In this document: positions 16,822 through 64,000 of the stretch, piece after piece | Layout of the letters: the number at the start of each line of letters is the position of its first letter | Position numbering within the stretch: position 1 is the first letter of the stretch | Assembly (NCBI GenBank): GCA_041649175.1 | Contig: JBAZNR010000001.1 | Span: forward strand, 258,332-322,331 | Source: Candidatus Omnitrophota bacterium | Lineage (GTDB): Bacteria; Omnitrophota; Gorgyraeia; Zapsychrales; JBAZNR01 | DNA length: 64,000 bases | Reading direction: 5' to 3' | Made by a program: the position numbers and the translations under genes | Notes under the pieces: generated by a model | Told to the model about the DNA's origin: nothing | Database searches by the model: none | Seen by the model: only the letters and a program-made list of their open reading frames with translations

Positions 16822-16885
16822 CGCTTCTCCTCCTTATTGTGGTTAAAAATTGCAATTAAACGACGTACTTCTTTCCCCTGTTATG

Positions 16886-19234: not shown

Positions 19235-19625
19235 TATACGATCGCTCCCAAGGAAAGGCTTTTGATGATATGTTTTTGCATGGTTAAGTATACTATGAGA
19301 ACAGGAACAACGGCAATGGCTAGAGCTGCCGTCAAAACTGGGTGGTTAATGCTGTATGTTTCCAGGGATCCTATGAGAGCTTTTTTAAAAAACATCCGAT
19401 ACTTTTCAATGATGTAAAAATTACTTGATTAACTTCATTTCCATTTGATAAATATTATTGCGCACGCTGGATTTGTTTGTTATAGTATAAAATTCATAAT
19501 TCTTCAAGGAAAATATTAGTTACTTCAGCCAGAAAATCAAACATTTTTTGCCGTAGAAAAACAGCTACGCCGGTTTTGATCTAGAATCCACATTATCAAT
19601 TACAAACCTGAAACGGAGGCCATGA

Positions 19626-21173: not shown

Positions 21174-21179
21174 TAAAGT

Positions 21180-31595: not shown

Positions 31596-31925
31596 CTATT
31601 GACAGTACTTAAAGATCCTCTGGGTATCCATAAAGTCAACCTTATCAAATCTTAATCCGGCATCAAAAGCGCTTGGATTAATGGCCCTGCTCCAAACGAT
31701 TTTCCCGCTTAAAATAAGCGGGTCGTGGCCATCAGGAAGCTCCACGACAAGGTCTACTTTATCCTCAAGATTTATTTGCTCTTTGGTGACAATCTTTGCG
31801 CCCTCGGCGGAGATATCACGCAAAAAAACATTACTGCCAAAATCATTCCGTGAATATTGAAACTTAACGGGGAACCTCGCGGTAAAACGATCGAAGACAC
31901 GACGGTCATCTATTTTCACTGTCAT
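31596..31925 (-). CDS. single-domain PilZ protein (c-di-GMP receptor family)
   Basis: 109 aa with RRVFDR (RxxxR) and DISAEGAKI (DxSxxG) motifs. Confidence 0.65.
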   Translation of the reverse strand: MTVKIDDRRVFDRFTARFPVKFQYSRNDFGSNVFLRDISAEGAKIVTKEQINLEDKVDLVVELPDGHDPLILSGKIVWSRAINPSAFDAGLRFDKVDFMDTQRIFKYCQ

Positions 31926-32036: not shown

Positions 32037-32360
32037 TTAAGCAAAATGCTTGCTTAAACTTGCGCGCGAACCATCCAGAATTTCGGTAAATGTCATGCCC
32101 ACACGATAAAGGTCGGATTCCAAAATCTTCGTAACCCAGCGCACTTCCCCTACCGCCACCACCGGCTCTCCTTCAGGCGTTAAGTTAAGCTCTACCAACA
32201 TCTTAGTATCTATCGGAATACGGTTTTTAGAAATAAACCCTACTCCGCCTTTACTGATATCGGTCGTTTGTGTGTCCGAAAATCTTGCCGCTTTTTGCGA
32301 AACAACCGGAACCTGGCAATCGTAACGGGCTGATTTTCTTTTTTCTGCTGCTGATGCCAT
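32037..32360 (-). CDS. single-domain PilZ protein (c-di-GMP receptor family)
   Basis: 107 aa with RKSAR (RxxxR) and DISKGGVGF (DxSxGG) motifs. Confidence 0.7.
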   Translation of the reverse strand: MASAAEKRKSARYDCQVPVVSQKAARFSDTQTTDISKGGVGFISKNRIPIDTKMLVELNLTPEGEPVVAVGEVRWVTKILESDLYRVGMTFTEILDGSRASLSKHFA

Positions 32361-36402: not shown

Positions 36403-36479
36403 CACGCCTCCTCTGTTGGATGATATTGTTTTTATTTCCACATTTCGACTGAACATTTATCTTCTCCTTTCGATCAAGA

Positions 36480-43500: not shown

Positions 43501-46500
43501 GATGAATCTTCTCCACAAATAATGCATCGAAAACACGGTTCTTTGAGATTCCGCCTTCAAGGCCAGGTCACAAATCCAATAATAAATTTCTGTATACCGG
43601 GCAAAAACCCTGTCGTACTTAATAAGCGTCTGGCGCAAAACCTTCGCGCGGGCTTCATTATCTTCCTGGATTGAATTTATCAACTCTTGCGCTTTTTCTC
43701 CCGACAGAGGATTGTCGTTATGATCTTCCGCGATTTTCTCAAAGGGAGAATTTCTTAGGCTGCGCCAAATCACTTCATCTTCCAGACATAGTATTGATTT
43801 TGAAAATCCCGGATCTCCCTGACGTGCCGTGCGATTAAATAATTGTTGGTCTTGGCGCCCAAACTTATTAGGTTCTGCCTGAATCACGACAAGCCCGCCC
43901 ATTTTGGAAACTCCTTCGCCTAATTTAATATCTTCTCCACGGCCCATCATGTTTGTCCCGACGGTAACCATCTTCTTTTGCCCGGCAGTAGCCACAATAT
44001 CAGCTTCTTGCCAAGCGTTAATGCCGTTTAGGACTTGGCAAGAGATCCCGTTCGCATTTAACAGCGCTCCTATTTCATTGGCTGTTTCAATATAACAAAC
44101 ACCAATAAGCACAGGATTTCCCTTAGCGTGCCATTTTTTTATTTCCTTAAGAACTTCCTCATATTTCTTTTTCTTTGTTCCATAAATCACCACGCCTAAG
44201 TCAGTCCGGCGGCAAGGCTTATTACGCGGGATAAAAGATGTCTTTAAGCCATAGTATTTCTGCAATTCATCCTGCTGGCGGCCAATACTTCCGCTCATTG
44301 TTGACGCTCTCTCGGCAACAGATAAGAAAAAGTGATGCTGCGTCATAATAAGCGCCGGGTCATATACTTGCGAAACGGGCAAATGCTCTTTTGTTTCAAT
44401 AAATTGATGAAGTTGTAAAGCCCAAATATGTTCCGGATGAAGCCGGCCCGTATATTCGTCCACGATCACGATCCTGCCATTTTGCACAACATACTCTTTT
44501 TCTCTGCGATAAAAATAATGGGCTTCTAGCGCCACAAAAATAAGCCGTTCAAAATATTCCTGCAAAGCTTTTTTTCCCTTGGGTGTGAGCAAAGCTATTT
44601 GCCGATAATCTAAGCGATAATGAACTCCCTTTGCTAATAAGGATTTATAAATATTGTTACGCGCCATTTCGACGGGATCTTCCTCTTCCTTTTGCTGATG
44701 GTCATTTTTGCTGATCCAGGAAATGACCTTGACAGTGTCGCGAAACCACGCATGATCGATATATTTCACGATAAAATTTTCTACCAGCTTTGCGCGCGCG
44801 TTTTTTCCTTTCTCGGTAAATCGGACATGCTTTGTAGCCGGATTTAAAATGTAATCTTCCCCCGGTAAAAGCCTATTTAAGGATTCCTGATAAAGGATCT
44901 TGTAAAAAGCACCCATATCCCATCCGTCTTTGACCGTCGTTATGATAGGCTCAAAAGCATTATCAATAAGTGTTTCATCGCCTTCATCAATAACGACAAA
45001 AGAAATTTTTCCGGGCCGGCGTACTTGTTGCTGCGCGTCCGTAACTAAATGATCTCGTTCTATATCGTACACAAACTCATCATTAACGCCGTAAGTGATA
45101 TCTGCCGCGTAGGCTTGCTTTCGATAAAGCCGCAGATTCTCTTTTTTGTTGTGTCCATTGCCATTTCCATTCCCATTTTTAGGAACTTCTAAGGGGCGTA
45201 AATTTTTATAATGCGCGCTGCCGTTTTGATAGGAAGGATCGAAAAGGTACGACTGGCCCCTGACAACAACACCGACGCTTAATCCTAAGAAATGATATAT
45301 GCCGCCCATATCATGAGCATCACGCAAGGCAAGATTTTCTTTAACCGTTGCCACATAGACGCCTTGCTCTTTTAAAGCATTTAAGTAAACAGCCGAAACG
45401 GCCGCTAATGTTTTCCCTTCGGAAGATTCCATCTGGATAGCGCGGCCTTGATAAAGTTGAAAGGCCGCCAAAAGCTGAACATCGTAAGGGCGCATTCCCG
45501 TTACCCTGAAAGCCGCCTCACTGACAACCGCAAATGCTTTCGGCAAGATCTCCTCCAAGCTTCCTCCGTTTTTAAGCCGCAGACGAAATTCTAATGTTTT
45601 GGCCCGCAATTCTTCGTCAGAAAGACCTCCAAGCTCTTTTTCAAGTTCTCTAATGCCGCTTAACAAGAGATTACTAAAAAGAACCTCATTTTCTGAGGGC
45701 AAATTATTAACATCCATAACCTTCGAGAGAGAAAGCCCAAAGTTTTTAGCCAAAACATTCACCACATTTCTAGCAATGCCTAATTCTTTGGCAGAAAGCG
45801 TTCGGTTATTCTTATTTCTCCAAAGTGCGCGTATGCCTGCCCACTCTTTAAGCTCTTCCAGCGCCAAATACAGCGTTGGCTCATCTAAAATAGCGATGAA
45901 ATTCTCTTGTGCTTGCCGCATATCACCCTCGGAATAATTTTTCATCAAAATCCTTATACCTCTTGTGCTTATCTTTAACATTTTTGCGGCTTCGGTTTTA
46001 TTGCGGCCGGCCGCTAAAAACGCGTGAAGAACGGCTCTTTTCTTGATTTCATCCCATGTTAAGGCATCGTTTTTAGCAATGTTCAAATACGGCAATATAA
46101 AAATAAAATCATGAAAGGTGTTTTGGTTTATTTGATATTCGGCTATTTTTTGATCTAAATCTTCCTTTGACAGTCCTAAGTTTCTTGCCGCATTTTCTAT
46201 ATCACCGCCGCATTTCGCCAATGCAAAAAGAATTTGTTTTTTCTCTTTTAATGTCAATTCTGCGACGGGGTCTGATTCTTCTCGGTCTTTTTTTGATCTT
46301 TTGCTAACCGCCAAAACCGCGGCGGCAAAAACCATCTCCGTTGGGGCGTGAGGAAAATAGCCAAACACCGTGATCAAGATAAGAACCGCGCCAAGAGGAT
46401 AAACAAGGTTGTAAATCCTCTTTTTCTTTAAAATAGAATAGATCCTCCCCCGAAGATATCTCTGCAGCATAATGGGGTAAAGATTGCCGAAAATATTAAA

Positions 46501-49500
46501 GATCCCTAAAACAGAAAGTAAAATCATTCCCGCTATTTGAATAATTCCTGTTGTCAGCAAACTTACGGCCAATAATCCGCCCATGACAGAAAGCACGATC
46601 AAAGAGTATATGTAGTGGATCGTTTCCATTTCCCTGGTTGTTGTCTCTTTTCTTTTTAATGCCTCAGCGGAGAAGTGATCGACAAATACACTCGGCGGTA
46701 ATTTCTTAATATCTCTCAGCAGCCATTTTCTAAACATCTTGATCCCGAGAAGCTCATATAGTTTGCCGCTTCGTTCGAAGAATTTCGGCTTAAAAACAAA
46801 CTCAGCCCGACGAGGATCTTTTAAAAATACATTCACTAAAGATGTGGAGAAGTAGGAAATCACAAGAACACCCGCAATCAAGATGAGAGAAGCTATCCCA
46901 ATAAGAACGGCCGATAAAGAAATAATAGCGAAGGATTTAGAGGAAAGAATGGTGGTGGCAAGAAATATCGTGGAATTCATCGACCCAGGGGCGAAATTTC
47001 CAAACAGATATTCCAGCATTCCCCAAAGTACCACAAACCCTGTAAGCCCAAATCCGATCCAGCCGTGAAGCTTTTCTCCATCAAGCTCTTTTAAAGAATC
47101 GTCTTCTTGCCGAGAATGAATATCCTCAAGGATGTTCTTTAAAGGTTGATGAACTCTTTGGACAGAAATAATTTTTGGGCGCAAGTATGGTATTTCTCTC
47201 AATACTGCGACACTCAGCCGAGGAGAAAAATTGCCCACTTCAAAAAAAAGATTAGTTCGGATATTGCGAAGTGCTAAGCCCCCGATATACGCACTCTTGC
47301 TCTTACCTAATTTTATGCCTGGCCTCATCACTTCAAAAGTACTACCATTCGCCCCATTAAGCACATCACCCATTTGCAAATCTTTAAGTAAAAATTGATC
47401 AGCAGGAATAGTGAGGGTTGCCATTTTTTCTTCTTGTGAAGGAGAGGAAGGAGCCTGAGCCAAAGAATTTACCGGAGAAACACTTACTACCGCTGTTAAA
47501 ACTGCGGCAGAGAAAATAAAGCGTGGGTTGAGATATTTTATCGGTGGCGCCTGGGCGAAATGGCCGAAGAGATATCCCAAAACTCCCAACAATCCTACAA
47601 ATCCAAACAACACCCAGCTGCAAAGTGCGGTTTCTTGGGAATCTAATACAAAACCTTTTGTTTGTTCTTTAGCTGACTGAGATCTATCAAGGGAACTCTT
47701 CCGAGCAAGGGCATGACCGGCTAAGACAATAAATTCGCCATTTCCCACCGGGAAGAGCAGTTTATTAGCTATGAAAATGTAAACTGCTTTTTTCATGTGC
47801 TCTGTAGATTTAATGATTTCCAACGAGGCTTTATCCAAGATTCTTTCCAAAGTTAACCGCGCCCCAATACCTGCCGCAAGGCAACATCGTTCTATTTCTT
47901 GAAGATCAACCAATACAAATTCGCCCAACGTCCCTAGTGCTTCTTTTGAGTTAATTTGAAATCTTTTTTGGAATCTGGAAATATATACCGCAATCTCTTC
48001 TGGAGTAAGAAGTTTCTCCCATGCCCTATCGGGTAGCGTGATAGACGAAACATGTTTTAGACGCTTAAATTCCCCGTTCATTCCGGGAAGAGCTAAAATT
48101 AAAATTCCATTGCGTTCATATCGAAATATAAAGCCGCGCTTATAGCTTAACGCCCCTAATATTTTTTTGATGGTTACGACAGAATTGATCATCGACAACG
48201 GCACTTGATCATAAACGATAAAAGTATTTTCCGTAAGGCCGTTAAAATAGATCGATAGCATGTCGACCCAAAATGATTCAAAATTGTCTAGGATTGGCTG
48301 GCTTTGTTCTCTGGAAAAACCCCAAACTTCAAGATTACGGATAAGTTTTTCATCTTCCCGCAAAAAAAGCGCAGGAACACTATTAGAAACACTTTGTGGA
48401 CGACTTGCTGAGCGTTTACTTTTTCCGGAGGATCGTTTTGAAGATACTCTATTTTCTTTCTGACTACTCTTTCTTAGAACATCATCTTCGTAAATCTTAT
48501 TCTTAATATCTTCCAGCAAGTGTTGTAACTCGCGGATACGAACCAAGAATCTTAAATCATCAATACCTTGGCTTAAAGGATCTAGTTGCGACAATGCCAT
48601 CTCGGCATCTTTATGATCAAAGTATTCTTGATAAATTTCGATAAGCGCCTTGGTCTTTGAGCGTAATTTTTCTGCATTCGCATCAGGAAAATTTTTCTTA
48701 GGAGCCCGCAAAGCAATCCATTGACTTAAACGTACGTCTCTGGTTTTTGTCGGTTCCTTAAAAACCGGAATGATATTCTTCAAGTCCCTAGCAGGAGGCA
48801 CCTGCCGACCGATATATGGATCAATTAGGTCTAGTAGCGCCTTAAACCGTGAGCGTGGCAAAGTTTTAAGGAAGAACTCGGGATTACTATCAATAAGCTG
48901 AGCAATTTGACGTGATGTAAATCCAAAAAGGCTTAAAACAAGATACAAGAAATGGAGGAAAACGACAGACTCTAAAAACCTTTGCTTGGTCCAATTTGAA
49001 ACCCGGTACCAATACGTGCGGCTAAAAGAAACCCCGTAGTTTTCAGGAATACGCATCCGTTCTAAAATCTCTTCCGGTAACCGAAGCCTTTCCCAAACAA
49101 CATCCGGAACAGGCCCAATATATTCCGCATCATCTCGTCCGGATAGAACAGATTCTTTTCCCGCCTTGTGCTGCGCCTGTATTTCTCGTAATTCTTTCCG
49201 AATCCTGTCTTCCTTATAATTAGATATTATAAGAGCAGAGATGGGCATTTTGAATTCATCCTGAAATATTCTTGCCTTCCTTAAATATTCCGACGGAGAA
49301 ATCTTTCTTTGGATATATTTCGGAAGTCTATGATATTCAATACCGCGGGCACGTAATTCTCTTAAAGCCGCCGGACGCCCGCTATTGCTCATTTCTTTGG
49401 CTACGCGCATTTTTTTGTTCTCGATCAAAAGAAGCCTTTGGCTATGCGCTGGCTCTGCAGCCAAATCACACCGTAACGGTTTAAATTCAACGACTAAACT

Positions 49501-52500
49501 CCGCAAAGGCCTATTTTTTAGAGTTCCAAAATCAGCCTCGGTAGCCAATCGAAATACCGCCCAGGCATATTCACCCGGATTTCCTAAAGAAAAGCTTAAT
49601 CCTTCAATGCCCTTACACCAAAGGCATGTTCCTAATTGCTCATGCTGGGCTTTACGCAATTTAACTAATTCCCTAGAGGGAATCGCCTTGGTAAATTCTT
49701 CAACGTATAAACGTAATTCGGATTCTATTTTCTCATGGGAAGGAGTTTTGCATAAACTTAACCCCAAACTCTGACAACGCGCGCGAACTTGATAAGGCCA
49801 TTGTCTTTTTCTTAAACCATCAAATGCTTTGATCATTTCTGTTGCCGTCGGAAATCTTTCATGAGCAATCGTTAAGGATTGATGAGCCGTACGGTATTCT
49901 TGATCGGTTGTCACCGATCTTCTTGTGCTTGTTTCCTGTTTTACCGTCGCCCACGCCATACCCAAGGGCGCGAAAAGAGGCAAAAACGCAAATCCGTGAA
50001 GCTTTTCTTCCGTCATTCCCTCAACCGCTTTTTCCCAGTAATCAAAAGAGTCCCCGATAACATCAGAATAAGATTCATTCAGTTTCTTAAGTGCCAAAAA
50101 TAAAGCTGTTGCCTGATCATTTAATCCAACTAAACGTAATGATTCAAGGATTCGCGTAAGGCGTAGAAAATTGTCATTCGGTGAAGATAGCCAAACACGG
50201 CTTCTATTCTTAAATCCCGGGCTATGGACGACGCGCAGGCCATTTTGACTGTTTCTTAAGGCAAGCCCATAGAAGGAAAGCATGACCTTAAGGGATCGGA
50301 TCATATTTGATCTAAGGTTTTGACCGATTTTTGTATCGGCACGAAAAGTATCGGCAGTTTCCCGGGTTAAAACAGGAGGAACAACCTTTTCTCCTAGGTT
50401 ACGGCCCATGATTTCCCACACAAAAGCACCAAGGCTTTTTGTAGGGAACAATAACTGTATAAAATTGTGGTCTTCTTCAAGCTGCTCATGGCTAAATCGC
50501 CAAATATCACGAATATATCTTCCTTCGTGGTCTGTTCTTCTTCCCAAATAAAAATCAATCAGTTTGTCATTGAATCCTGTAAGCGGCCATGAGTCATCCC
50601 CCACCGTTCCTAGGGCCGGCAAGCAGAATAAAAGCGAAATAAACGGTAGCCCGAAACAACAAAGAGCTTCCGATACAATTTTCCTGTTTTCCAACACCAC
50701 AAATTCTATTTTCCGTGCCGTGATGACATAATATTCCGTCGGGAAACCTTTGCTGTCGTAAACCTGCTTAACGGTAATGCCGCTATACCTTTGAGATCGC
50801 TCAAAATAGTGTAAAACTAAATTTATCCTTTCTTGGGCAGAGTGATGATCATTCCACGTTTTAGTTCTTGCTGAAGGATCGGAACGGTCGTCAAAAACAA
50901 CAGCAAAAGGCGCGCCAACTTTTAAAATTCGGTTAACCTCTCTAAAAAATCTCCTCGGCTGTTTAACATAGGCAATGCCGTTTTTCATCAATACGCCCGA
51001 AGCGTAATCATTCGCCAGTAATCCTAGCCCCCGATTGACATCAAAAACAATGCCTTGGGTGAGCCTTTGATTTGCGCGTAATTCAACTTGATTTAACCCG
51101 ATGCCAATAAATTCTCCCTGAAGAGTGCGCGGAAAATATGTCTTAGCGCCGCTCATCAGGTCAACAAAAATAGGTTTTTTGATCCGATGATCATTTTTAA
51201 AAATACTCATTAAGGCATGTTCAATGGCGATCTCTTGTTCAGTATTGGTATAACCGATCAAATTAGGCTTCTGCCAAACGGAAGATAGGTTTTCTACCGT
51301 CCCCCACAGCCCAAACGGCAAGAAACAAGCAAGATTATTTTGTTTCTGGAAAATATAAGCTCCATTTCTTGCCCCACCGTAAGCAGGGCCGTTATAACCA
51401 AAAATAGCCCCCTGTCTTTCTAACCCCAAAAGAACACCATCTTGCACCAAGGTTAGTAACCCGCGTGCGCTACGCTCCATAGCCCTGTCGCTATCAAGAA
51501 TGACAAATCCTCCGGGCCTTAAGAACTCTTCAATAAGCCGAGCTGATAAAAGGAATTTTCCGTCTCTAATATAAACATCACCGGCTTTGATAATGATAAG
51601 ATCAACCCCTTGGGACGCTTCAAGATGACTTCGATAGGAATCAACGGCTAAACCATCCGTTTTTTCAACAAAGATCAAAGAACGCTCTTTTCCCTGCAGC
51701 ATAAAATTCAAACTGAAAGTACCCGCGTGGTGGCCGGTCGAATTTAAATCAATATCAGTCACACCGCTTGCCCTTAGCTCTTTCTTTAAAAATGGCCATA
51801 TCCCTTGGCACATCCACAACAATTCATTCGAGATAAAACCCATTCGGCTTTTTTCTATTAAATACAATTCGATGATCTTATCTTGGTGTATGGCGCAACG
51901 CGGATCAATATCATCCATCTTGCCGCCTGTTAGCATCATCATAAGCTTGATCATCAAAAAATATTGAAGAAGCTGCTGTTGTTGCTCTTGAGAAACTGCA
52001 TTTAGATTTGTGTGAAACGGAAGTTTTTCGATAAAAATAAATTTGGCGGCATTGGTCGTAACCCAAGCTGTAGAAAAATCAGCGGCCGGCCCGATCAAAA
52101 GCGCCACTCTTTGTTCATTGTCTCTCATGGTTTCTGCGCTGTTAACAATTTCGCGGATACGGCTCATGTATCGGAAATTCAACTCTCCGCCAACCAACAT
52201 TTCCACGGACCAGATTGCCGATGATCGATCACCGCTTCTATTGCCCACCGTCGCCCACACTAAACCTAGCGGCAGACAGGCCGACAGTATAAAGCAGGAA
52301 AGTTTTTCTTGCTGTGCCGGCGAAGCGGAACTATCAGCAAAAAATTCATCCCAACCGCTGTCCATCCAATCGGCCTTCTGAATTAAACCAAATTTAGCGA
52401 CAATTTCTCCCTTTAACTCACGCGTGCACATGTTTAAGTTAACGCTCATGCTCCCGCTAGAATGAACCACGGTTGTTCCGACGCGTTGTGAGATTTTCTC

Positions 52501-55500
52501 GCGAGGATTAAATCCCGCGCTTGTTAGTTTCTTAAAATCGAAACTCAAAACTATCGGCTGACTGGCATAAATCATACGATAGCCTTCTCCGACAGCACCG
52601 GGAGAAAGAAACGCCGCTACATCTTCTGGTTCATAACCGCTACTGCCCTCTTCGACAAACGGATATATTATTGCGCGCGCATGCATATCGGCAGATGCCG
52701 CTTCAGTAATCAGTTCAACATTCCCTCGGCCAAAAACCCAGCCTTCAGTTTCTAATGCCCTGTCAACAATCGCCGTAATTGTGCCATGATAGAAAATAGG
52801 TTGGAGAGGGGAAAGCGTTTCGTCATTTTCCGCGTCCACCGTCCCCCACGCCAGCGGTAGTGAAAACACAAACAGCATCACAAAAGCAAACGTTCCCTGA
52901 AGTTTATCATCGTGTCCGGTATTTTGAATAATCAAATCCCAGCGAGGGTTTAATTCTCTCATCTGAAGGTCTATAGCCCACCAACGGGAAGCATATTCAT
53001 CGTCGGCTTCTTGGATCCTGTAAGAATTAATTTGGTCTTTCGAAATGCCTTGGCGCTCAAAATATCGTCCATAGGACGCCAAGCGGGAGATGCCTTCCGA
53101 ACGTTCGATCAAGATATGGATATCCGGATCTAAATCGTGATGGTCCAGCCATTTGGGCGCATGGTAACCTTCGACCACGATCACCTTGGCTTCTTCGCGA
53201 TGTTCGTAAGGTAGTAAGAATTCCGGATTTTCTTCACTGTAAACACTGACATGGTGGCGGAGAATTCCATCCAGCTCTCCTTGAGCAATTAAACGGCTTA
53301 AAGTTGTTTTTCCGCGCGCAGGCAATCCGCAGATACTGATCACTACCGGTTCTTCGCCCCTTTCTAATCTCTCCTCGATCATAGCGCTTAATTCTTTTAA
53401 TCCCTCCCAAAGATCATTAGCGCGCCGCGGAGCGGGTTTTCTGGCCCAGACAACCATATTGTGATTCACAACAACGGCAAGATCGGAAAGTTCAAAACCA
53501 TAATCGTCGTCGGTTTCCTGATTAGCGGTGTAAGAGCCGGATCCCACTTCGAGATTTAATTCCTTTCCAACTGCCTTAAGCATCTCTTCGTATTCTTGTG
53601 CCGTCATCGGCTTGATGGATGGATCTCGATTAGTTGCTCCTAAAAAGTTACTGGGCCCTTCATCCATACTGCGATATAGAATAACGATGTATCCGCCCTC
53701 TTCCAAAAGCTCAAAAGCTTGCTTCAAGATTCTCGCCCTGTCTTCCGGAGAATAGAAAAATAGGACGTTAGCAATGGTGATGATATTAAATTTCTCTGCA
53801 ATACCGTTTTGATTCAGCAGATCTTTTATATTGAGAATATCTCCTTCGATAAGCCGGATCTGTGTGTTGGCGCGAAACGGCTCTAATTTTTCTTTTGCCC
53901 ATTTGAGCATTTCACCGGAAATATCCACGCCGACAATTTCGGCGGCGCCGTTTTGCGCAGCCAATTCAGCGACCATCCCGGTTCCCGTCGCCAAGTCCAG
54001 AACTCTACTTCCCTTAACATGATCGAGCGGAACAGCCGCACCAAAAATAGATGCCGCCGCTTTCCTCATTGCCACTTTTACGCCGATATCATAATTCCGC
54101 CGAACGGCAAAACCATCGTATTGTCTTTTGAGGTTTTGCGCGGTAGATAAAGATTCAAGATACGCATCAATGTCTGCTTGTGTTAACGCCGCGGAAAATA
54201 TTTCCCGTTCCCAGCTCATCGTCGAACGCACGAGTCCATCTTGAATACGTTTTATTTTTCTTTCGTCAAAATTAAATCCTTCAAACCCCTGGCCTATTCC
54301 TCGTCGAATTCCGGAAATAAAAATATCTTCCTTATCGCTATTTTCCGGCTTTGCCAAGTTTTCCGCGACACCGCTAACCAAGACAATATGTTCCACAAAC
54401 TCTTCATCAGGATAATGACGGACAAATGCCGCAAACGCTTGTCCTATTTGTTCTGCCATATCATTAACAAATAACATGGTAAATTCATCTTTCGAATTAA
54501 CAGCGTTGCTCATTCCCCTTAAAATGCTATCAACGGCGCGAGCCTTCAATATCTGCTCATCTTCGTTGAGTGAATCTGTAGCGCTAATTAAACGCGATAA
54601 ACTTTCATAGTCGGTAACACCTTCGGGAAGTTCTATATATTGCAAAGCCAAACGATTGTCCCCAACAGCTTCCATAAACGCCGCGGCAATCTTCGGCCCG
54701 CCGAACAGGTCTTCAAAATCAACTCTGCCTTCATGCTCAACGGGATGTTGCCCCTTAGCCGTAAAGCCAACAAATTCCCATTTAAGCGAAGGCAAAGCAA
54801 ATGGCCCATTGTCATGAAAAGTAGCTTCGATAACATGGCCTAATTCTAAGATCTCATTTTCTTGCCCAAAATAGGGTTTTCTGTTTTTCCCGGCTGTTCC
54901 ATTATTTCCGGTCCCTAAAATAAATGCCATACCATCTTGGACTTGCGCCAATCCTCCGCGAGGACTGAATTCTCCCAAGAGAGCCGCTTCGCAATCATTG
55001 TAAACAGCCACTGCAATACGATAACCGTATTGATCATTAAGTTTCTTCTCTAGCACGTCTTTAAGAGGATAATTTTCAAACGGTAAGTTAGCCGCTTTAA
55101 ACGGTGTTCCGACGATGCCGCGATAAGAATCCACAGGACCGGCAAAGGCAATTCCAATTTTTATAACTTTTTTATCCGGCAAGCCGGTGATGATATTTTC
55201 AATTTGAAGCAGAATGCCCTCAATGATATTGTCACTGGTCGCAGATGCCGTGTATTTTTCTTTCCATTTGATAGCGTCCACAGTCGCAATGATATTCCCT
55301 TGTACATCTACCGCCCCGGCGCCGATCTTAGTTCCACCCAAACTGATCCCGACAGATACGACTGAATCTTTTATAGAGAAAAGTGCTCCCATCGGCAAAA
55401 AGGCCGAAAGTTTCTCTGTCTTTTGCCCACTACCATTGTCCTCATCCGAAATGATTTGCTCAGGCCGTCCATCAAAATAAACAGCTTTCCAGTGTAACCC

Positions 55501-58500
55501 GTCGTAAACAACAACGCCCGCGTTACGCCCAAATTCGAGATGTTTTTCAGCCAAAATAATATTGGTATTGATGACCTTGCCATTTTGAGTCCAGCGAATT
55601 TCTTTCGCCTCTTTGTGTCCGACGATCTGCGGCAGTAAAAGATTTTCCGGGGTTAGATTAAGTTCATCATCAAAGTCAGCCCAAATAATACCGCCTGGTT
55701 TATACCCGCTTTGCCCGCGTTTTTTGGGGCCAAAGTGGGCATTGCCGCGCTCAAAAACAATATCGCTAAAATTATTTGCCCTAATCGCCTCTACTAAACG
55801 ACGATTCAACTCTTGGGCAATATCTTCCATCGGCAATAAATTCGGCCGATCATTTATTTTTATGGCAATATCTTCATCGGTTAGTTCTTGCGGATCTTTA
55901 TCAAGTTCCTGGGCAATGAGAAGAATTGATTCCGGATGAAGTTTCTTAAGTAAATGCGCCGTAATATGCGGCAGCATTCCACCATGAACCATTAAGCGGT
56001 CGTGGATATGAAAGGCGGCCACCATTTCACCTGAAAGAATGGAATTTCGCATTTCCGGAATGATTTCAGTGGCTCGCTTATCTTCCGGTTTTCCCTGAAA
56101 ATGCTGGAGCTCATGATTTCCGACAAGCGTTACCAAACTATTAGCCTTTGATAAAGCCTTTCGATGCAGCATGTGCAAATAACGATACAGCTCTTTTTGA
56201 TATTTGCCGCGGTCTAAAATATCCCCGATCACCACAACCGTAACGCCGCACACTTTCCACTCATCATTCATGAAATCGCTTCCAAATTCAATGATGCCAA
56301 GCTTACTTAAGGCATTGCGCACGCCCCACAGCTCTCCGTGGGGGTCACCAATGATAACCGTTGTTACGGCGGCTAAGGTTTGCGCTTCAAGCAATTCCCC
56401 TTCAACTCGAATAATGCCGTCCCCAAAAGTAAGCGAAGCGTTTGTCCATGTTTCTCCTTTATCGGTGGAAAATACCGGCCGGATAGAATATGATCCCGGG
56501 CGGGTCATGAGCACTCTTGCCTTAAAAAGATAGTTATTACCCTCAAATCTTAGGAATTCCAGAGGAGTGAAGGAATATGGGGCTTCATCTTCGAATTTAA
56601 TTTCGAGAGTTGCCGCTATGCTATGAGCAAAAATAGCGTCGTGAAGTTTCCGGGAAACATACGCCTGAGCATAGATCTCTATCATTTGACCGGATACGAC
56701 TTTAACCGTTTTTCCGGAAAATGGGCCGGCATAACTTTGTGCCGCGATATCCAAATTGCCGGCCCAAACAATTGGGGCATGCCCTAAGTCGCGATTAAGA
56801 ATTCGTGCAAAATCAGCAATGGAGAATTCTTCAAGCTGCATTAACTCCCCGGCCAGGTCCAACCGGACCTGGGCCCACTCTCTTAAATTCCATTTTTGGT
56901 GCGCGACCCATGCCCCCTGCAAAAGTTGAGTAACAAGATAAAAATAAACCCTTAATAGAAATAACTTTTCCGCATCCAAGGACAAATCAACTGGGGATAA
57001 ATGAACCGTGCGTTTAGAATATGTTAATCCATATCGCTTTTGATAAGTCGTCAGAAATTCGTGCATCAATTCTTCGATGTGCCCTATCAATAAGGCGTTA
57101 TTTTTTCTGGCATCAATAAGGCCCAACAGCGCGTTGGCTAATTCTTTTGTTGCCGCGTCAAATCCGCCTAATTCAGCATCGATCCAGGCCATCACGTGGC
57201 CGGAGTCGCTATCAACAAACCAATTCCAGGGGAAAGGATCGCCGTGAGTAAGAACTTTTTGCTCACCTAAAACAACGTTGTAAAATTTATTGAAGAAATC
57301 TATAACGGCGGGAGGATGAACCGAGGCAAGGTGCTCTTTGAACTCCGGGTTATCGATCATGCCCATTATTTTGTCTAACAATGTCGCATAATCGCTTCTT
57401 GAGACCGGCTGAGCCGTTGGATAGCTTTTGTGAAGGCGCGCTAAGCCGCCGGCGGCGGAACGTAACGTTGCCTTAACTTTTTCAATATCAGACCGGGGAC
57501 GATGTAAAAAGCCAAATTGACTTATTAACCCTAATCGATTTAAATTCTCCAGAACAAGAGCCCTGGCATTGTCATTGAATAATAGAAGATGGGGGCGCTT
57601 ATACGGATTAGCCTCAACAAAAAAACATTTCTCGGCTTCATAAGCCTTGGGGGCACTTGTTTTGTCCATATAGATCTTAATAATGTATTCCCCCTCTAAG
57701 GCTTCAAAAACAATGCGGCTTTTTACCGAGATCAAAACTCTCCCCTTTAAGTAATTAACTAACTCCGGCAAGCTCATATCACCGGCGGCAAAGAAATTAA
57801 GCAATTCTTCAATGTATTTTAATTCCTCATCTGGACTCTCTTGCTCTTTGACCATCGCCCAAAACCCAAGAGGGAAAAATATTCCGGCAAAACCGTTAAG
57901 AGATTGTCCGTCTTCTTCATCCGACAATAGTTTACCGATCTTGGCTCTTAGCAATCCTACAATCGCGCTATGAAGCTGGGAAATACGGCTTTCTGTTAAA
58001 TTTAACAACCCCCCGATTTCTCTCATGCTCATGCCGTTAAAATAGTATTGTTGAATGATCGTACGGTCCCGGGCGGGAAGCTTTTCAATATATTCACGCA
58101 AAATAGAAACTTTTTCTAAGGCGACAACCCGTTCGTGAATGTCTTCATCCGACGGAAATAATGCTTTTAAAGAATGTAGATCGTTGCCTGTCGTTCTTGA
58201 AATGAAATTATCCAAAGAATCAAATCCGCTTTGACGGGCATAAATAATCGTACGCAGCTCTTCGATCCCGATATGAAGCTCCGCCGCTATGGCTTCTTCC
58301 GTCACATATCCTCCGGAAATAGCAGCCAATTTATCCACCGCTTCATTTAATTTATTGATTTTGGCATACATGCCACGCGGCAAATGATCTTGGGAACGTA
58401 GGAAATCGATGAGCTCTCTTTGAATACAGCCAAAAGCGTAAACTTCAAACGGAACATCTTGGCGGTTATTGAAATCCCTCGCGGCCGTAAACAGCCCAAT

Positions 58501-61500
58501 AGAAGCTACCTGCTTTAATTCTTTGAGCATTTGGGAATCTTGTTGAATTTTTTGGGGTAGTTTTCGATAAATATATCTGGCAACGCGATCGGTAAGATAC
58601 GAATACTTCTTTATCACCTGTCGATATTTGTTTTCTTCTTGGTTTTTCTCGTAAACAGCTTTTTCGCTTTCAAAATGAATGCCATAAGATTTAATTCGCC
58701 ATTGAAGATTTCTTCTCGACAAACCAAGCTCCTGGGATGTTTGATCCTTATCGAATTTATTTTCCTGCAAAGCATTCAATATTTTCTGACGTTTAGCCTT
58801 GAATTTAAACTCCCGATGAATTTTTTTCACATCAATTCTTAGTTTCTTTAAGTACTTATATAAAACTACCTTACCAATATCCAGAAATTCGGCTAACTTA
58901 GGAACATCGCCCTGAAACTGGTTAAGCAAAGCTTTAAGAACTTTCTTTCTTTTCTCTCGGATAGTTCTTCTTACAGGAGCATCGGAACGCAATCCTGATT
59001 TTCTTATATGGCCATATAAAGTCCCTTTTCCGATTTTTAAGAATTCGGCTAACTTAGGAACATTATTCTGGAACTGATCAAGTTGGATCTTAAGGGTTTC
59101 CCTTCTTTTGTCTCGAACAATTTCTCTCACGCGAATGCCGGCGCGCAATAATTCACTATTTAATACGGCCCTGTCGCATTCGAGAAATTCGGCGGTTTTC
59201 GTAATATTCCAGTCATGCTTTTCTAAAAGCTCTAATAATTGTTGTTTTCGCGCTTTTTTATCTTTTCGTTCCAAGGAGAATAACTTATAGCGGCTAAATA
59301 ATAATTCCCGGAGGTAGCCCTCACTCACACCGCGAGCTTCGGCTGTCTTGGCAATATCATCACCGTGCGCTTTAAAGTCTTCACGCAATTGTCTTTTACG
59401 ATTGCGTTGTTTTTTCTCACCCGGACGAATACCATAACGGCTAATCCGAGAACGCAGCGTATGAATGTTAATATTTTCACCTTTGGCTAATTCTTCGGTA
59501 TCCCAATGATATTTGTTGAGTAAACGTAAGAATTCGTTCTTGCGCCGATCTCTTTTTTCTCGTCGCTTAGACCTTGGATGGTTAGGAGATTCTTCTTTTG
59601 TATTTGCAACCATGCCAAACACAGCAAAAGGAAATATAAAGCTATTAAGGGCTTCTGTTTTCTTATTCGGCGAAACAGGTTTTAACCGAATTGCGAACGT
59701 GGTTCCCTCTCCCGGAGTAGATCGCGCGACAAAGATCTCGCCACCCATTCGCTCGATACTACGTCGCGCGCCGCTTAATCCAACACCAGTCCCATCCATG
59801 ACAACTTTCTTGGCCTGATCAGTGCGATAGAAAACTTTAAATACCTTCGCCATATCCTCAGGGGCCATTCCCATACCATTATCGACAACATCAACCCGGA
59901 CCCAAGTTGTTCCGTTATTGTTCTCCTCGGAAATACCGATTTTGACCAAATTACCGCCGTATTTTTTGGCATTTGTCAAAAGTTCGATCATCACCTGCTC
60001 TAATTTCTCCTGATCTATTAATACCGGCATGCGTTGCTGAAGAATATCAACAATAAATAATGGATCGTGTACAACAGCTTCTCCTGAGGTTTTGACATGG
60101 TTCTTAAGAAAAATCCTTGGCAGCCATGAAGCTAAATTAACATCCTTTATAACAACGGCCGGCTCAACGATCTTTCCGGAAACTAGATCATGCAGTCTTG
60201 TCGTTAAAAGCATGAAAGTTTCATAGGAAGATTTTTGTTGTTCTTCTGCTTCCACCTCCGGGATCCGTGATGAGTCCAGCAAATCCCGTGTTGCGTTAAT
60301 AAAAGTAGTCAAGGAATAGTACGTCACTCTCAGGCGCTTAGTCTTTTGCCCAATATCAATACGCAAAATGATCTCTTCTCTTGTAACTCGAGCGAGGTCT
60401 TCCATAAGCTGATTGAGAGACCCGCTATGAACCGATAAAGCTTGCATTCGATATTGCTGTTCTTCGCCGGGAACTGCGTCTAGATCCAAACGGGAAAGAG
60501 CCCCTAACATGCTTTTTAAGAATTGAGACAGGATGTCGATCTCATTTTCTCTTAGCATGCTGAGATCTTGTTCGCCGTATTCCTGTAATAGGCTCCCCTT
60601 TCTTTCTACTAAACCTTGCCAATCTTGTGTTTGGTTCATGAATTCCCGGGAAACAAGCTGAAGTTTTGCCAATATATCGACAAATTCTGGAAAACGCTTG
60701 GCGGCTTCATAAAGCCCTGATAGATAATTACGAATATCATGAACGGTTTCCACGATATTGTGGGCGTTACGGCTCATATTCAATGTATTCTCAACACTCG
60801 CGTCTAAATTAAGCCGGTCCATCACCAGCGTAACTAATTGCGCTATCATCAAAATGTATTTCGTTTTAAGCTGTTGGTCTTCTTCGCTATAAAACAAAGG
60901 CTGGGAAACGGATAGATCGGCCGATGAGGCGGCTATTTGCCAATTATCCATCATCAGGATGTAAGAAATTTCTCCGCTAAACGCGTCAATAATACCGATA
61001 TGAAACACCTCTTCTACGCGCCCCGCGTGCTTACCGCCGAAATGAACGCGGTCGGATTCAAACATAAGCCTATCAACAAAATGTTCATCATCCATTAGCC
61101 CATTGTCGCCGATAAAATGATCACTGCGTTTCTTGGTATGCAATAAAAGCGGCTTCCCCTGAGCGTTCATGCGCTCAAAAGTATTGAGCGCTCTTAATTT
61201 CTCATCGCTGGAATCAGAAAATACTTCTTTGTGACGGCTGGGGCGAAATCCACCGCGCGAGGCATCCAAAACATGGCTGACCTGCCAAACATTGTCAATT
61301 TTTCTAACCTTGTAAAGCCTAGCCCGGCCGATGTGCAGGACTTGAATGATCGCTTTACTAAAGATATCCTCCACTTTTTCTTTGTGTTTAACGGAGAAAA
61401 GGGCTACCGCCAATTGAATGAGATTTCCCACATGCCAACGCGACGGCGAATAATCGACCAAGTTGCGCACGGCTGCCCCTGAGAATAAAACATCGAAAGA

Positions 61501-63996
61501 CGCGCCAGCCAAAGCTATTTGTTCATTATTGGACATACGCCGCAGAGCTTCGATATGTACCTTTGATGAGCGCAAGACCCGTAAGAATAACCCCATGATC
61601 TTTTGCGCTGATCTAAGCGGCCCGCTTTGATCGATCACCTCTTTGAGTATCTGGCGCGATAAATATCCCTTTGAATAACTTCCCGATAATTCTTTCAGGC
61701 GTACCTTAAGGGCAAGGACAGGTGTAATGAAAATATGGTTTACTCTTCCCGAAATATCGATAGGTGCCGAGGTTTTTAATTGGAAATTCTCCAGAAGAAG
61801 GCTCATGGTCTCATGTTCTTCCGAGGCTTTTTGAAGCGCGGTAGAAATATTTACTTTCTGCTGATAAGTAAGGTCTTGGACTTGGATCTCGTTTTGTTGC
61901 GGCAAAATTCCCTGCTCAGCACCAACAAGGCTGTCGCGAAGCGCATCTATTGCTTCGATCAAATCCTGATTAGCGATTTGCAAATTGGAAAAGACGGAAT
62001 TGATATTTTCCCACTCTTTATTCTTCAAAACCCGACGGAAGAAAACCCTAAAGATCCCTAAAGCTAATATTTTATCGCCTACGCGCAACCGCCTTGATAG
62101 CATCGTCATGTCAAGATCAGAGAATCTTAAAGCCTTTATTTGCCTTTTACCAATGTCCATGGCAAGATCATTTAACTCATTTTCAAAATCATCGTCTAAG
62201 GAAAGTTTATAGTCACTAAGAGCTTTTAGATAGACCCTGAATTTCCATGGATTATCTCTAAAGTAAAGAATGCTTTTGTGGCGGGCTAGGGCTTCCTCAT
62301 CGCCATCCAAATGCGAAAATTCATGGCGGAAAATATCTTCGCGGATAACCCAAGAAAGGTCAAAGTGTTCGGCAGGAATATGAGCCAAGTGAAAGAAATA
62401 TGGATGTAAGAATATGGTTTTGATTTCCCCATCACTGAATGCGATGTGGCTACGGGTCAGATCAAGGTCGGTGGTGATAACTAAACGCCAAGTACCTACG
62501 GCCGGCGGTGCGCGTCCGTTTTCGCTAAGGCGTTTAAAAACATTTTGCATAATTTCAAAATGCCCATCGTAAAAACCTTCAGGATCCGTTAAATCAAACC
62601 CGGATATGAAGACATCGGTTAATGTCTTTTGAATACCGAATTGTTCATCCGCCTTCTGGGCGGCTTCAGCCGGAACGCGCAGAGGATAAGCGGCAGTAAC
62701 AGGAAGATTCTCCGGACAGCTGTTATGAGGAGAAAAGTCATCATTTACATTACTCACCATTCCGAACAATGCCGGAATTAGTGAGTCGAATATATTTCCG
62801 ACTGAAGGACAGAAGCATGCCAGAGAAACTTCTTCTAATCTTGTCAGCAGAAATATTTCCTTGGGATCATATCCGGTCAGCACAATAATGTTCTCTCTGG
62901 CGAGAATAAATCTTTCCACATGAAAAACGTTAGGAAAGATCTTAAAGGCCCGTTGAACACCTTCAAGAGACGTAATATAAAAAAGTTTCCTGTGACGGAT
63001 AATTTCTTCTATGGAAACAGTTTTTCCAAAACCTTTGCTCAGTAAATACTTAACGATGATCTGTAGGTCATCTCGGATAAACTCATGTAAATTCTCCCTG
63101 GCTTCGCGCTGAGATTCAATCTTAAAATCCCGTTTGATCCTTTCAATGGAATGTTCGATTTCCTGCCCGCTTAATAAACCTTGAATAGCTTTATCGCTGA
63201 CAGATATATTTTCAATTTGTCCCATTGTAGAATCTTTAGGCAGGCTTTCCGCTTTGGGAGATCTTAAAATTTCAACTCCGTCTTTAAAATACCGGAAAAC
63301 AAAGCCGTAATCTTGGCTTAAAATGCCTAAAATCCGTCGGGTAATCTCAGTAGAAGCGGCAAACTGTGAATATTTAACAATGTCTTTCCCCTTTTGCCCG
63401 GCTGAATGAGACTTTACCATTTCCAGATATCTCGCAAAATGAGAAAAATAGGCAAACTCAATATTGCGTAATATTGTGCGGATTCTATCATTGGATAAGT
63501 TCCATTTTTTAGTTAACAACTTTATCAGATTCCGACGTTCTTGATGCGTTAATATAGAAATCTCTTGCTTACTGACTACAGTAGCACTTTCTTTCTTTTG
63601 GCTTGAAGCGGCCGCTAAGGATTTATTGCGGGGCTTAGAGGATTCCTTTTGCTTTTGAAGAGCCGCTTTTAAATTATCCAAGCTGAGATGAGTTATTTGC
63701 TCCAAAACCGGCTCGAAACCAAATTCTTCGTAAATGAGAAGCTTTTCAAAGAAAGAAGACGGCGTATTTCCGGCTCTTACCCATTTTGGAAGTTCTTTGT
63801 AAATATAGCCTTTTCGCTCTAATTCACGCAGTGCAAATTCCCTATCAACGCCAAATTCTCTTTTCACTTTGACAATCCCATTTTTGATGCTCAGGTAACG
63901 CTGTGCGTGGACAGGTTCTGTTTCTTGATCAGCCCCATAAGGCTTGAAAGACACAATAAGATCACGGCTTTTATTAATTCTTCTAAAACTAATCAA
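40576..63996 (-). CDS. giant multidomain protein of at least 7,806 aa; signalling, enzymatic and SecA-like mosaic; N-terminus unresolved at the window edge
   Basis: A single stop-free reading frame of 23.4 kb in AT-rich DNA. The first in-window codon is TTG and the frame stays open to position 64000. Recognisable domains are listed as separate entries below. Confidence 0.85.
   Translation of the reverse strand: [7806 protein letters not shown]
42037..42609 (-). other. giant ORF domain: C-terminal array of three Fis-type HTH motifs
   Basis: [91 protein letters not shown] (aa about 7130-7320). A further pair lies at aa about 5910-6020, just before the SecA-like module. Confidence 0.55.
43297..45669 (-). 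other. giant ORF domain: complete SecA-like motor (NBD1 with Walker A, NBD2, helical scaffold)
   Basis: [76 protein letters not shown] (Walker A rc verified at about 45400-45430); [45 protein letters not shown] (DEAD-like); NBD2 [16 protein letters not shown]...[15 protein letters not shown]; scaffold [20 protein letters not shown]. Each matches a canonical SecA signature in the expected order (aa about 6110-6900). Confidence 0.75.
46297..47634 (-). other. giant ORF segment: cluster of about 8 predicted transmembrane helices
   Basis: [150 protein letters not shown] (aa about 5455-5900). Confidence 0.6.
50077..50589 (-). other. giant ORF domain: OGFr_N-like (opioid growth factor receptor conserved region) domain
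   Basis: [44 protein letters not shown] resembles the ..H.YIQWLFPL.E.G.N...P.LT core of PF04664 (aa about 4470-4640). Confidence 0.4.
52897..53355 (-). other. giant ORF domain: P-loop kinase (Walker A [9 protein letters not shown], 6-phosphofructo-2-kinase/zeta-toxin-like)
   Basis: [17 protein letters not shown] (rc verified at about 53300-53345), at aa about 3548-3700. Confidence 0.55.
53662..54039 (-). other. giant ORF domain: class I SAM-dependent methyltransferase fold
   Basis: Motif I [11 protein letters not shown], then GVDIS, LIEGDI and EEGGYIVI (aa about 3320-3445). Two or three further MTase-like folds follow at aa about 4040-4220 and 4250-4430 ([10 protein letters not shown]...[21 protein letters not shown]...[11 protein letters not shown]). 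Confidence 0.55.
54637..55374 (-). other. giant ORF domain: ROK-family sugar kinase fold
   Basis: [28 protein letters not shown], ELGHV (aa about 2875-3120). Confidence 0.65.
55597..56364 (-). other. giant ORF domain: PPP-family calcineurin-like metallophosphatase
   Basis: GDPHG (IIGDPHG), GDxxDRG ([10 protein letters not shown]), GNHE (LVGNHE), HGG (MVHGG), at aa about 2545-2800. Confidence 0.7.
56737..57819 (-). other. giant ORF domain: aminoglycoside-phosphotransferase/choline-kinase-like kinase fold (APH family)
   Basis: [42 protein letters not shown] matches the HGD...N and (I)D(F/W)E..G.GD..DLA catalytic and activation motifs of PF01636 (aa about 2060-2420). Confidence 0.6.
57922..58599 (-). 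other. giant ORF domain: sigma-70 family factor-like (regions 2, 3, 4)
   Basis: Region 2-like [41 protein letters not shown]; region 4 [45 protein letters not shown] (aa about 1800-2025). Confidence 0.7.
58642..59529 (-). other. giant ORF domain: array of four Fis-type helix-turn-helix motifs
   Basis: [94 protein letters not shown] (aa about 1490-1785), in a basic, Arg/Lys-rich context. Confidence 0.6.
59677..60009 (-). other. giant ORF domain: GHKL/histidine-kinase-type ATPase (HATPase_c)
   Basis: N-box [11 protein letters not shown]1 VDNGMGM (rc at about 59868-59886 verified), G2 GTGVGL, at aa about 1330-1440. Confidence 0.7.
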
Positions 63997-64000
63997 GATC

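Follow-up and report, generated by a model that had tools for sequence, protein, structure and literature searches.

A FliA/WhiG-type sigma domain preceded by six Fis-type helix-turn-helix repeats in a giant Omnitrophota protein divided by recurrent junction peptides

The stretch of Candidatus Omnitrophota DNA analysed here, hereafter the window (64,000 nucleotides, nt; assembly GCA_041649175.1, contig JBAZNR010000001.1, positions 258,332 to 322,331 of the forward strand), contains a giant open reading frame (ORF) on the minus strand, in which a sigma-70-family domain lies among kinase- and phosphatase-type domains. The ORF occupies 40576..64000(-), has no in-frame stop and is open at the window edge; the window covers its C-terminal 7,807 codons, and ~16,400 amino acids (aa) lie upstream of the edge. 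An independent assembly, Logan contig SRR8542065_7826 (83 kb), carries the same locus with a product of 24,212 aa that reaches the contig end. Window and contig together leave the ORF stop-free over at least 72 kb, and the full product measures at least 24,212 aa. An earlier note, made from the letters of the window without database searches, had described 55597-60789 as a fused signalling cassette containing a histidine-kinase-type ATPase, four Fis-type helix-turn-helix (HTH) domains, a sigma-70 domain, an APH-like kinase and a PPP phosphatase. This interval (minus strand) is indeed in frame within the giant ORF, although its lower limit lies about 200 nt too high, the PPP domain extending to ~55405. 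The ATPase, sigma, APH-like and PPP domains are confirmed by Pfam and NCBIfam matches together with their catalytic motifs, and the matches to HATPase_c, HTH_8, Sigma70_r2/r4, APH and Metallophos all hold as significant in profile searches. The sigma domain also lies, as proposed, inside a single giant, membrane-associated protein. In contrast, the five domains do not form one contiguous fusion. They fall into three modules, namely a kinase module (residues 416-1450 of the giant protein, window numbering here and below), an HTH/sigma module (residues 1465-2033) and an APH/PPP module (residues 2051-2865), which are split by short junction peptides.

The HTH/sigma module comprises a basic lead-in, six HTH_8 repeats and the sigma domain. 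The Arg/Lys-rich lead-in and the tandem Fis-type repeats, of ~48 aa each, occupy 58690..59568(-) and match Pfam HTH_8 with an E value (E) of 6.6e-20, or 5.8e-16 in a Pfam scan of 55597-60789(-). Four stretches pass the Pfam threshold, but all six repeats, two more than in the earlier note, align and keep the family pattern, and the internal self-similarity of the array reaches E 4.6e-9. The sigma domain that follows (57937..58617, minus strand) is a complete group-3 sigma of the FliA/WhiG (sigma-28) type, as established by the NCBIfam model TIGR02479, by PDB sequences and by an AlphaFold2 (AF2) model. Sigma-2 lies at 58387-58590(-) (Pfam Sigma70_r2, E 4.5e-8) and sigma-4 at 57946-58101(-) (Sigma70_r4, E 7.8e-11), with a weak Pfam match to Sigma70_r3 (E 0.026). 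The FliA_WhiG model TIGR02479 aligns over positions 1-223 of its 224 with E 7.4e-41 and 140.3 bits, and among the NCBIfam subfamilies the FliA/WhiG type scores 140 bits against 83 bits for the SigB/F/G type. The PDB FliA chain 9wsm_F is matched over its full length with E 3.9e-27. Similarly, the AF2 model, built on a 70-sequence alignment, has a pLDDT (predicted local distance difference test score) of 86.8, and its best Foldseek matches are sigma-28 and WhiG structures. The domain is full length and no insertion or deletion disrupts any of its three domains.

The residues that contact promoter DNA were identified from the P. aeruginosa sigma-28 structures (PMC12784957), the PDB alignment and an alignment in which the domain is set against its 150 best homologues among free-standing proteins. 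The embedded sigma retains Y76, D87, R90, D93, R97, S224 and Q228 (P. aeruginosa numbering). In P. aeruginosa, Y76 stacks on the flipped -11A, R97 reads the extended -10 element, and S224 and Q228 read the -35 element (PMC12784957). The extended -10 motif LPR is retained, the -35 helix ESRISQLH is identical to the family consensus and the GL..A motif of region 2.2 is present. The replacements are concentrated in the -10 reading head and comprise R80C, R82Q, G83R, W94H and R104N. Among the 150 homologues position 80 is Arg in 132 and position 82 is Arg or Lys in 135. Over the 36 columns conserved at 80% or more the embedded sigma deviates at 8; the 150 FliA homologues deviate at 3.4 on average (standard deviation 2.2, maximum 10), and at 9 or more in 3 of the 150. 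Since the -35 and extended -10 contacts are kept and R80, R82 and R104 are replaced, the residues suggest that the -10 specificity is probably non-canonical. The concern that the sigma regions might lack the -10/-35 recognition residues and be merely HTH-like is thus borne out by half: the -35 and extended -10 readers are kept, whereas the core -10 residues R80, R82 and R104 are not. The domain is a real, complete three-domain FliA/WhiG-type sigma, not a mere HTH, with an atypical -10 reading head.

An exhaustive HMMER search of 1.84 billion representative proteins with the HTH/sigma module retrieves free-standing FliA-type sigma proteins only, none of which resembles a fragment of a giant protein. 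These relatives are mostly ~250 aa long, with some N-terminally extended to 523 aa; the best match has E 5e-25 at ~30% identity, and none among the 1.84 billion is closer than ~30-37% identity. The embedded domain shares with known FliA/WhiG factors (TIGR02479; PDB 9wsm, 6pmi, 1rp3, 6pfv) the fold, ~30% identity to many free-standing FliA proteins, the -35 readers and R97. It differs from them in being embedded in a giant chain instead of forming a ~240-aa protein, in the six HTH_8 repeats ahead of it and in its altered -10 region. The string 'flagell' is absent from the text of one Omnitrophota survey, and a flagellar role is therefore not to be assumed for this sigma.

The kinase module consists of ~650 aa without an assigned domain together with the ATPase domain, which matches HATPase_c, the histidine-kinase-type catalytic ATPase family, at 59680..60015(-) (Pfam E 1.4e-22, 80.6 bits against a cut-off of 26.4). 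Its best NCBIfam matches are the classical two-component kinases WalK, PnpS and PhoR, and the N (ELLTNAKKY), G1 (DNGMGM), F (FKVFYR) and G2 (GTGVGL) boxes are all present. The Pfam matches are confined to HATPase_c and HATPase_c_3, with none to HATPase_c_2, the RsbW/SpoIIAB-type family. The idea of an RsbW/SpoIIAB-like ATPase gives way to a WalK/PnpS/PhoR-like domain with complete N, G1, F and G2 boxes, and we infer that this ATPase is not an anti-sigma factor. The ATPase had also been described as devoid of a convincing His box. In agreement with this, the HisKA profile finds no match on the kinase region even at E<=10, a custom DHp+CA profile aligns the CA domain alone, and in pairwise BLAST alignments the homologous H-box position is a stretch devoid of His. 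An H-box-like motif nevertheless exists, ETVHDIRNYLSGL (VHDIRNYLSGL), recognised by pattern at 60712..60750(-), with a candidate phospho-acceptor His at residue 1087. Its HDIRNYL segment is the sole match to H[ED][ILVM][RK][NTS].L in the 7,807 aa and lies ~245 aa upstream of the N box, the usual distance of the phospho-acceptor His being about 110 aa. The motif falls within a predicted helical hairpin; a single-sequence AF2 model of the kinase module, poor overall (pLDDT 40.6), gives this hairpin a pLDDT of 70-80. A cognate receiver domain (Response_reg) is matched neither in the 7,807 aa nor in the neighbouring genes.

The APH/PPP module is built of a kinase domain, a beta-rich spacer and a phosphatase domain, and a ROK/methyltransferase module comes next. 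The APH-fold kinase, of the eukaryotic-like/aminoglycoside type, occupies 57010..57822(-) with a Pfam core at 57124-57483 (APH, PF01636; E 7.7e-6, 26.3 bits against a cut-off of 23.2). It contains the HGDPFPWN catalytic loop and the WIDAELGG motif with the metal-binding Asp (IDAE); no PDB sequence matches it at E<=1. The PPP-family metallophosphatase occupies 55405..56382(-) with a Pfam core at 55939-56361 (Metallophos, E 2.9e-8, 34.8 bits against 21.5). The PPP signatures GDPHG, GDILDRG, GNHE and HGG are intact, and the domain gives weak PDB matches to calcineurin-type phosphatases and to Shewanella cold-active PPP phosphatases. Thus, all catalytic motifs of the ATPase, APH and PPP domains are intact.

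The modules are bordered by a recurrent junction peptide of the pattern L-x-[GCS]-F...P...[WFL]-[GA]-[TM]-V, in which the middle holds 4-20 mostly hydrophobic residues, a Pro precedes the end by 4-7 residues and polar or acidic residues follow the end. The strict motif occurs eight times in the coding frame, at residues 393, 1451, 2034, 3700, 3900, 4223, 4446 and 4667, and not at all in the other five frames or in the 12,186 aa of the other ORFs of the window. Whole-sequence and block-shuffled controls give a mean of 0.01-0.03 matches, a contrast that is inflated because the pattern was derived from the same data. The strict copies sit between Pfam domains, and the family resemblance of the peptides is plain from their sequences. 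Between the kinase and HTH/sigma modules lies LNSFIFPFAVFGMV (59608..59649(-); 14 residues). The junction LNGFAGIFFPLGFWAMV (57850..57900(-); 17 residues) begins 13 aa past the end of sigma-4 and separates the sigma from the kinase/phosphatase module. A further strict copy, LACFCPSVGNIFDSLIPALFGMV, is found at 62755..62823(-), and five others (52837-52902, 52246-52302, 51295-51333, 50602-50664 and 49942-50001, all on the minus strand) bound small modules, including OGFr_N. The border between the PPP and ROK/methyltransferase modules is formed by a looser variant at residue 2866, EKLSAFLPMGALFSIKD (55345..55404(-)), which falls outside the strict regular expression. Further looser variants occur around residues 5459 and 5644.

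By a simple summed Hessa dG the two sigma-flanking junctions exceed 5 kcal/mol (over 19 aa for 59608-59649) and are too short and polar to span a membrane, and three other junctions are borderline at about 1-1.4 kcal/mol. The junctions are usually acidic on both flanks. In seven of eight cases their C-terminal ends fit the signal-peptidase rule: position -1 is Gly or Ala, -2 is bulky, -3 is small or aliphatic, and a Pro stands between -4 and -7. The signal-peptide c-regions of two S8 proteases encoded directly downstream (Pro at -6, Ala at -1) resemble these ends. The likeness of the junctions to signal-peptidase sites is suggestive only. Internal translation starts at the junctions are unlikely, as no Shine-Dalgarno-like sequence precedes an ATG or ACG there, and internal promoters and terminators occur at chance level.

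The giant gene is a member of the published class of Omnitrophota giant genes described as the 'Archaeovorin' type or 'multi-enzyme cluster', and the identity and module structure of the giant protein are near certain. Velamenicoccus archaeovorus provides the type example of the class, a protein of 39,678 aa. West-Roberts et al. 2023 (bioRxiv 10.1101/2023.11.21.568195) give a SecA without wing and scaffold as the hallmark of the Archaeovorin type, together with many hydrophobic segments, PilZ genes just downstream and then solute-binding protein and ABC transporter genes and glycoside hydrolases (GH). Nielsen & Lui 2026 (bioRxiv 10.64898/2026.06.07.730766) list HATPase_c, methyltransferase and ROK among the commonest domains of the multi-enzyme cluster class in a catalogue of 916 proteins, and PilZ genes follow most Omnitrophota giant genes according to published reports. 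The window agrees with these descriptions in its Omnitrophota host, in an ORF of at least 24,212 aa with a divergent SecA devoid of wing/scaffold and periodic hydrophobic segments, and in its HATPase_c, methyltransferase, ROK and Ser/Thr-type phosphatase content. It agrees also in the downstream PilZ genes, solute-binding protein, ABC permeases and glycoside hydrolases, and in S8 peptidases associated with the locus. In contrast to the Archaeovorins, in which S8 proteases are N-terminal domains, the S8 proteases are here separate downstream genes.

The embedded SecA motor (43900..45666(-)) contains the DEAD (SecA_DEAD, E 2.1e-58), preprotein-binding (SecA_PP_bind) and second P-loop (P-loop_SecA) domains, and no SecA_SW (scaffold/wing) match is found in it by Pfam. 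It is 33-42% identical to canonical SecA proteins, and a database search with the SecA module retrieves canonical SecA only and no giant relative. The remainder of the ORF in the window matches, in Pfam, ROK, SAM-methyltransferase, OGFr_N, CrtO-like membrane domains and two more HTH_8 copies. The class is marked by glycosyl transferase, GH, methyltransferase, peptidase and NUDIX domains; in the C-terminal 7,807 aa the domains found are methyltransferase, ROK, CrtO-like and OGFr_N only. About 20 hydrophobic segments occur in the 7,807 aa, of which those of transmembrane (TM) grade cluster near the CrtO-like and SecA regions.

With the whole region as query, a word-indexed search of 5.8 billion proteins retrieves generic histidine kinases only, at 6-15% coverage, and the giant protein itself is evidently absent from the protein databases. 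Pattern scans with the sigma module find nothing in GTDB genomes, JGI metagenomes or IMG/VR, and a JGI metagenome scan with an alignment derived from internal paralogues finds nothing either. The searchable text of West-Roberts 2023 and of Nielsen & Lui 2026 contains no sigma-70-family domain, Fis-type HTH array, APH or Metallophos and defines no sequence motif for the hydrophobic segments or module borders. A literature search finds no paper joining a giant protein, a sigma factor and Omnitrophota. A sigma-28-like factor with six Fis-type repeats in a giant protein, and the junction motif, are thus new in the sense of being unreported in the searchable literature.

The locus is interpreted, with a probability of about 0.5, as encoding a polyprotein-like string of cytoplasmic modules in which the sigma is carried as a tethered pro-form. 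The giant protein would be a string of independent former genes rather than a single signalling device. Its kinase, sigma and APH/PPP modules would share one side of the membrane, presumably the cytoplasmic one, since they require ATP, SAM and RNA polymerase. The string would be cut or fastened at the junction peptides, which would serve as processing or anchoring sites. The sigma would be made as an inactive tethered pro-form and become an RNA polymerase subunit only once cut out, and its excision would yield a ~570-aa protein made of the six HTH repeats and the sigma. Precedents are found in B. subtilis, in which pro-sigma-E is processed by SpoIIGA and pro-sigma-K by SpoIVFB, and in the regulated intramembrane proteolysis of anti-sigma factors. 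By analogy with the pro-sigma factors, the embedded sigma may be inactive while joined to a hydrophobic, membrane-associated segment and activatable by proteolysis. The known pro-sequences are N-terminal extensions of 20-30 aa on otherwise free sigma factors, whereas the sigma described here lies within a chain of at least 24,000 aa, with further sequence at either end; the analysis identified no protease resembling SpoIIGA or S2P. Many unrelated modules are likewise joined in one ORF by short recurrent linkers in viral polyproteins that have internal signal-peptidase sites and in MARTX toxins, whose effector arrays are autoprocessed. They differ in that no processing protease domain occurs in the window part of the giant protein, its modules look cytoplasmic and its scale is 5-10 times larger.

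Several observations weigh against this interpretation. Cleavage and proteolytic release of the sigma are plausible but doubtful. A cut of the signal-peptidase type requires export of the downstream module and so conflicts with kinases and a sigma that need the cytoplasm, and the adjacent S8 proteases, being secreted, would hardly reach modules in the cytoplasm. The junction motif was derived post hoc from the sequence of a single protein, and no related giant gene was found in any search, so that the motif, the sigma module and the module order are known from one protein. The sigma itself may not be a working one, its 140.3 bits lying below the curated TIGR02479 cut-off of 189.6. Its core -10 contacts R80, R82 and R104, arginines of importance to the activity of sigma-28, are C, Q and N, and in P. 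aeruginosa R80A leaves ~15% of activity (PMC12784957). In addition, sigma-28-like promoters number 15 in the window where 17 are expected, and so show no enrichment.

Other explanations assign the same elements differently. The earlier note had likened the interval to a covalently fused partner switch of anti-sigma kinase, sigma and phosphatase. In such a device the GHKL ATPase would act as the anti-sigma kinase and hold the adjacent sigma, and the metallophosphatase would reset the system. As in RsbW/RsbV/RsbU and SpoIIAB/SpoIIAA/SpoIIE, the coding sequences of a GHKL ATPase, a sigma and a protein phosphatase are neighbours, here in that order within 5 kb of one ORF, and the lack of a HisKA profile match upstream of the ATPase would agree with such a role. 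However, the ATPase is of another subfamily, being WalK/PhoR-like with F and G2 boxes and no HATPase_c_2 match, and an H-box-like motif lies upstream of it. Four Pfam scans find no STAS and no PP2C/SpoIIE domain in the 7,807 aa, and the phosphatase is of the PPP and not the PP2C type and shares a module with the APH kinase, not with the sigma. The sigma is FliA- and not SigB/F-type, and the antagonists known for FliA-type sigma factors are FlgM or RsiG and not RsbW-type kinases, which counts against the switch, as do the conserved junction peptides that divide all three parts. Contradicted by ATPase subfamily, missing STAS and PP2C, phosphatase type, sigma type and junctions, the partner switch is hardly credible and was dropped. 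The embedded modules could instead be effectors that the embedded SecA motor, together with the flanking secretion genes, delivers to prey or host, and that are cut outside the producer at the junctions or by the S8 proteases, in the manner of MARTX or viral polyproteins, with the modules manipulating the victim. Omnitrophota with giant genes are regarded in the literature as probable predators or epibionts, the ends of the junctions comply with the -1/-3 rule and have a Pro between -4 and -7, two subtilases with signal peptides lie immediately downstream, and published TMHMM predictions place most domains of the giants outside the cell, although the authors of these predictions doubt them. 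Against this, the sigma-adjacent junctions are not predicted to insert in the membrane, the junctions lack a positively charged n-region and consecutive identical N-in/C-out signals would be unusable together without return crossings. The prey known for V. archaeovorus is, according to the literature, archaeal, and a bacterial sigma would be useless there. Export of the modules is purely hypothetical, and this explanation is very unlikely.

The elements could also function without ever being cut, the HTH array and the sigma holding DNA and/or RNA polymerase at a membrane-bound giant, with the kinase and phosphatase acting as local enzymes and the junctions serving as monotopic anchors or packing elements between modules. 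The stop-free length of at least 72 kb, the HTH_8 and HTH_30-like copies near the SecA motor, and the acidic flanks and Pro/Gly content of the junctions, which suit re-entrant or interfacial segments better than membrane-spanning helices, are all consistent with this arrangement, and published topology work favours a membrane-anchored architecture with cytoplasmic domains for many giants. In the holoenzyme, however, sigma-2 and sigma-4 are spread over core RNA polymerase and the linker between sigma-3 and sigma-4 threads the active-site cleft (PMC12784957). Such a spread would be hard to achieve with both ends of the sigma fixed in a 24,000-aa chain and a hydrophobic segment 13 aa away, and permanent function in the tethered state is rather unlikely. 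Alternatively, the giant ORF may have swallowed independent genes by accretion, in which case the sigma and the HTH array would be drifting without current function and be kept only since a stop codon would cut off the essential SecA motor and membrane domains downstream. The sigma indeed stands at the divergent tail of its family, with 8 of 36 conserved columns deviating, its five replacements all within the -10 reading head, a score under the NCBIfam cut-off and the nearest relative among the 1.84 billion representatives at ~30-37% identity; moreover, giant ORFs are described in the literature as poorly conserved, with their SecA domains on very long branches. Neutral drift would not be expected, in contrast, to leave a full-length sigma without disruptive indels and with a confident AF2 model, a -35 helix ESRISQLH equal to the family consensus, neighbouring kinase, APH and PPP domains with intact catalytic motifs and six HTH repeats that keep their pattern. 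A relic without function is therefore distinctly unlikely.

According to West-Roberts et al. 2023 (bioRxiv 10.1101/2023.11.21.568195), whether the giants remain one chain or are cut is unknown, and with no cleavage points known, structural and functional analysis is blocked. The junction peptides at the module borders offer concrete candidate processing or anchoring sites for this question. That the Omnitrophota giants are true polyproteins, in which the junctions are processing sites releasing dozens of ordinary-sized proteins, is improbable. If they were, one product would be a ~570-aa transcription factor with six Fis-type HTH repeats and a sigma-28-like subunit of altered -10 specificity, and expression of its regulon would be coupled to the synthesis and processing of the giant protein. 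A complete sigma within a giant protein would represent an unusual control of transcription, with a pro-sigma that exceeds known pro-sequences in size by a factor of thousands. An inactive sigma, on the other hand, would clearly illustrate how giant ORFs capture genes.

Elsewhere in the giant ORF, a CrtO-like acyltransferase membrane domain (46420-46797(-)) and TM-grade helices lie directly upstream of the SecA motor. Two HTH_8 copies (46135-46245(-)) also precede the motor, and a tandem internal repeat at residues 7053-7260 (~42220-42843(-)) has a PucR-type HTH_30 match. DNA-binding-type repeats thus recur along the giant ORF, including near the SecA motor, and are not unique to the sigma module. 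The OGFr_N (opioid growth factor receptor-like) domain at 50020-50511(-), unusual for a bacterium, forms a junction-bounded module of its own. Two paralogous internal modules, at 62869-63966(-) and 47713-49503(-) (residues 12-377 and 4833-5429), share 28-39% identity in three blocks; both copies close with a junction-type hydrophobic segment and have no Pfam match. The window also has a free-standing ROK gene, of which the embedded ROK domain is not a copy.

Directly downstream of the giant ORF lie two paralogous S8 subtilases of ~1,330 aa (36480-40493 and 32476-36456, minus strand), identified by Pfam and Logan gene calls, which have FG-GAP repeats and clear N-terminal signal peptides and are predicted to be secreted. 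These subtilases may process those parts of the giant protein that are extracellular. Two small PilZ genes follow (32037-32360 and 31596-31925, minus strand; Pfam and Logan gene calls), and the downstream order is S8, S8, PilZ, PilZ, then GH94, a solute-binding protein (SBP_bac), two ABC permeases (BPD_transp) and GH2. A 1,086-aa ORF without a Pfam match (25386-28646(-)) lies between GH94 and the solute-binding protein, and an Rfam scan of the window gives zero matches. The WhiG structures 6pfv and 6pfj, which are among the best structural matches of the embedded sigma, show Streptomyces WhiG crystallised with RsiG and cyclic di-GMP (c-di-GMP). RsiG is the c-di-GMP-dependent anti-sigma factor of Streptomyces WhiG. 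A c-di-GMP link between the neighbouring PilZ genes, whose products are of a c-di-GMP-binding type, and the embedded sigma is speculative.

The MnmG protein encoded in the window has a 100% identical counterpart in a Candidatus Omnitrophota metagenome-assembled genome, and the next matches (more than 100, at 66-77% identity) that carry a name are all Omnitrophota or Omnitrophica. A scan of genome contigs with MnmG returns only chance matches of ~50% identity from other phyla. A relative at 75% MnmG identity (JGI Ga0116241_10000010, ENA ERZ761563 NODE_2) occurs on 18 contigs of up to more than 1 Mb. Compared with window positions 11415-22133, this relative keeps the order LacI, 420-aa, 228-aa, TPR, GH2-TPR, MFS and 313-aa genes beside mnmG.

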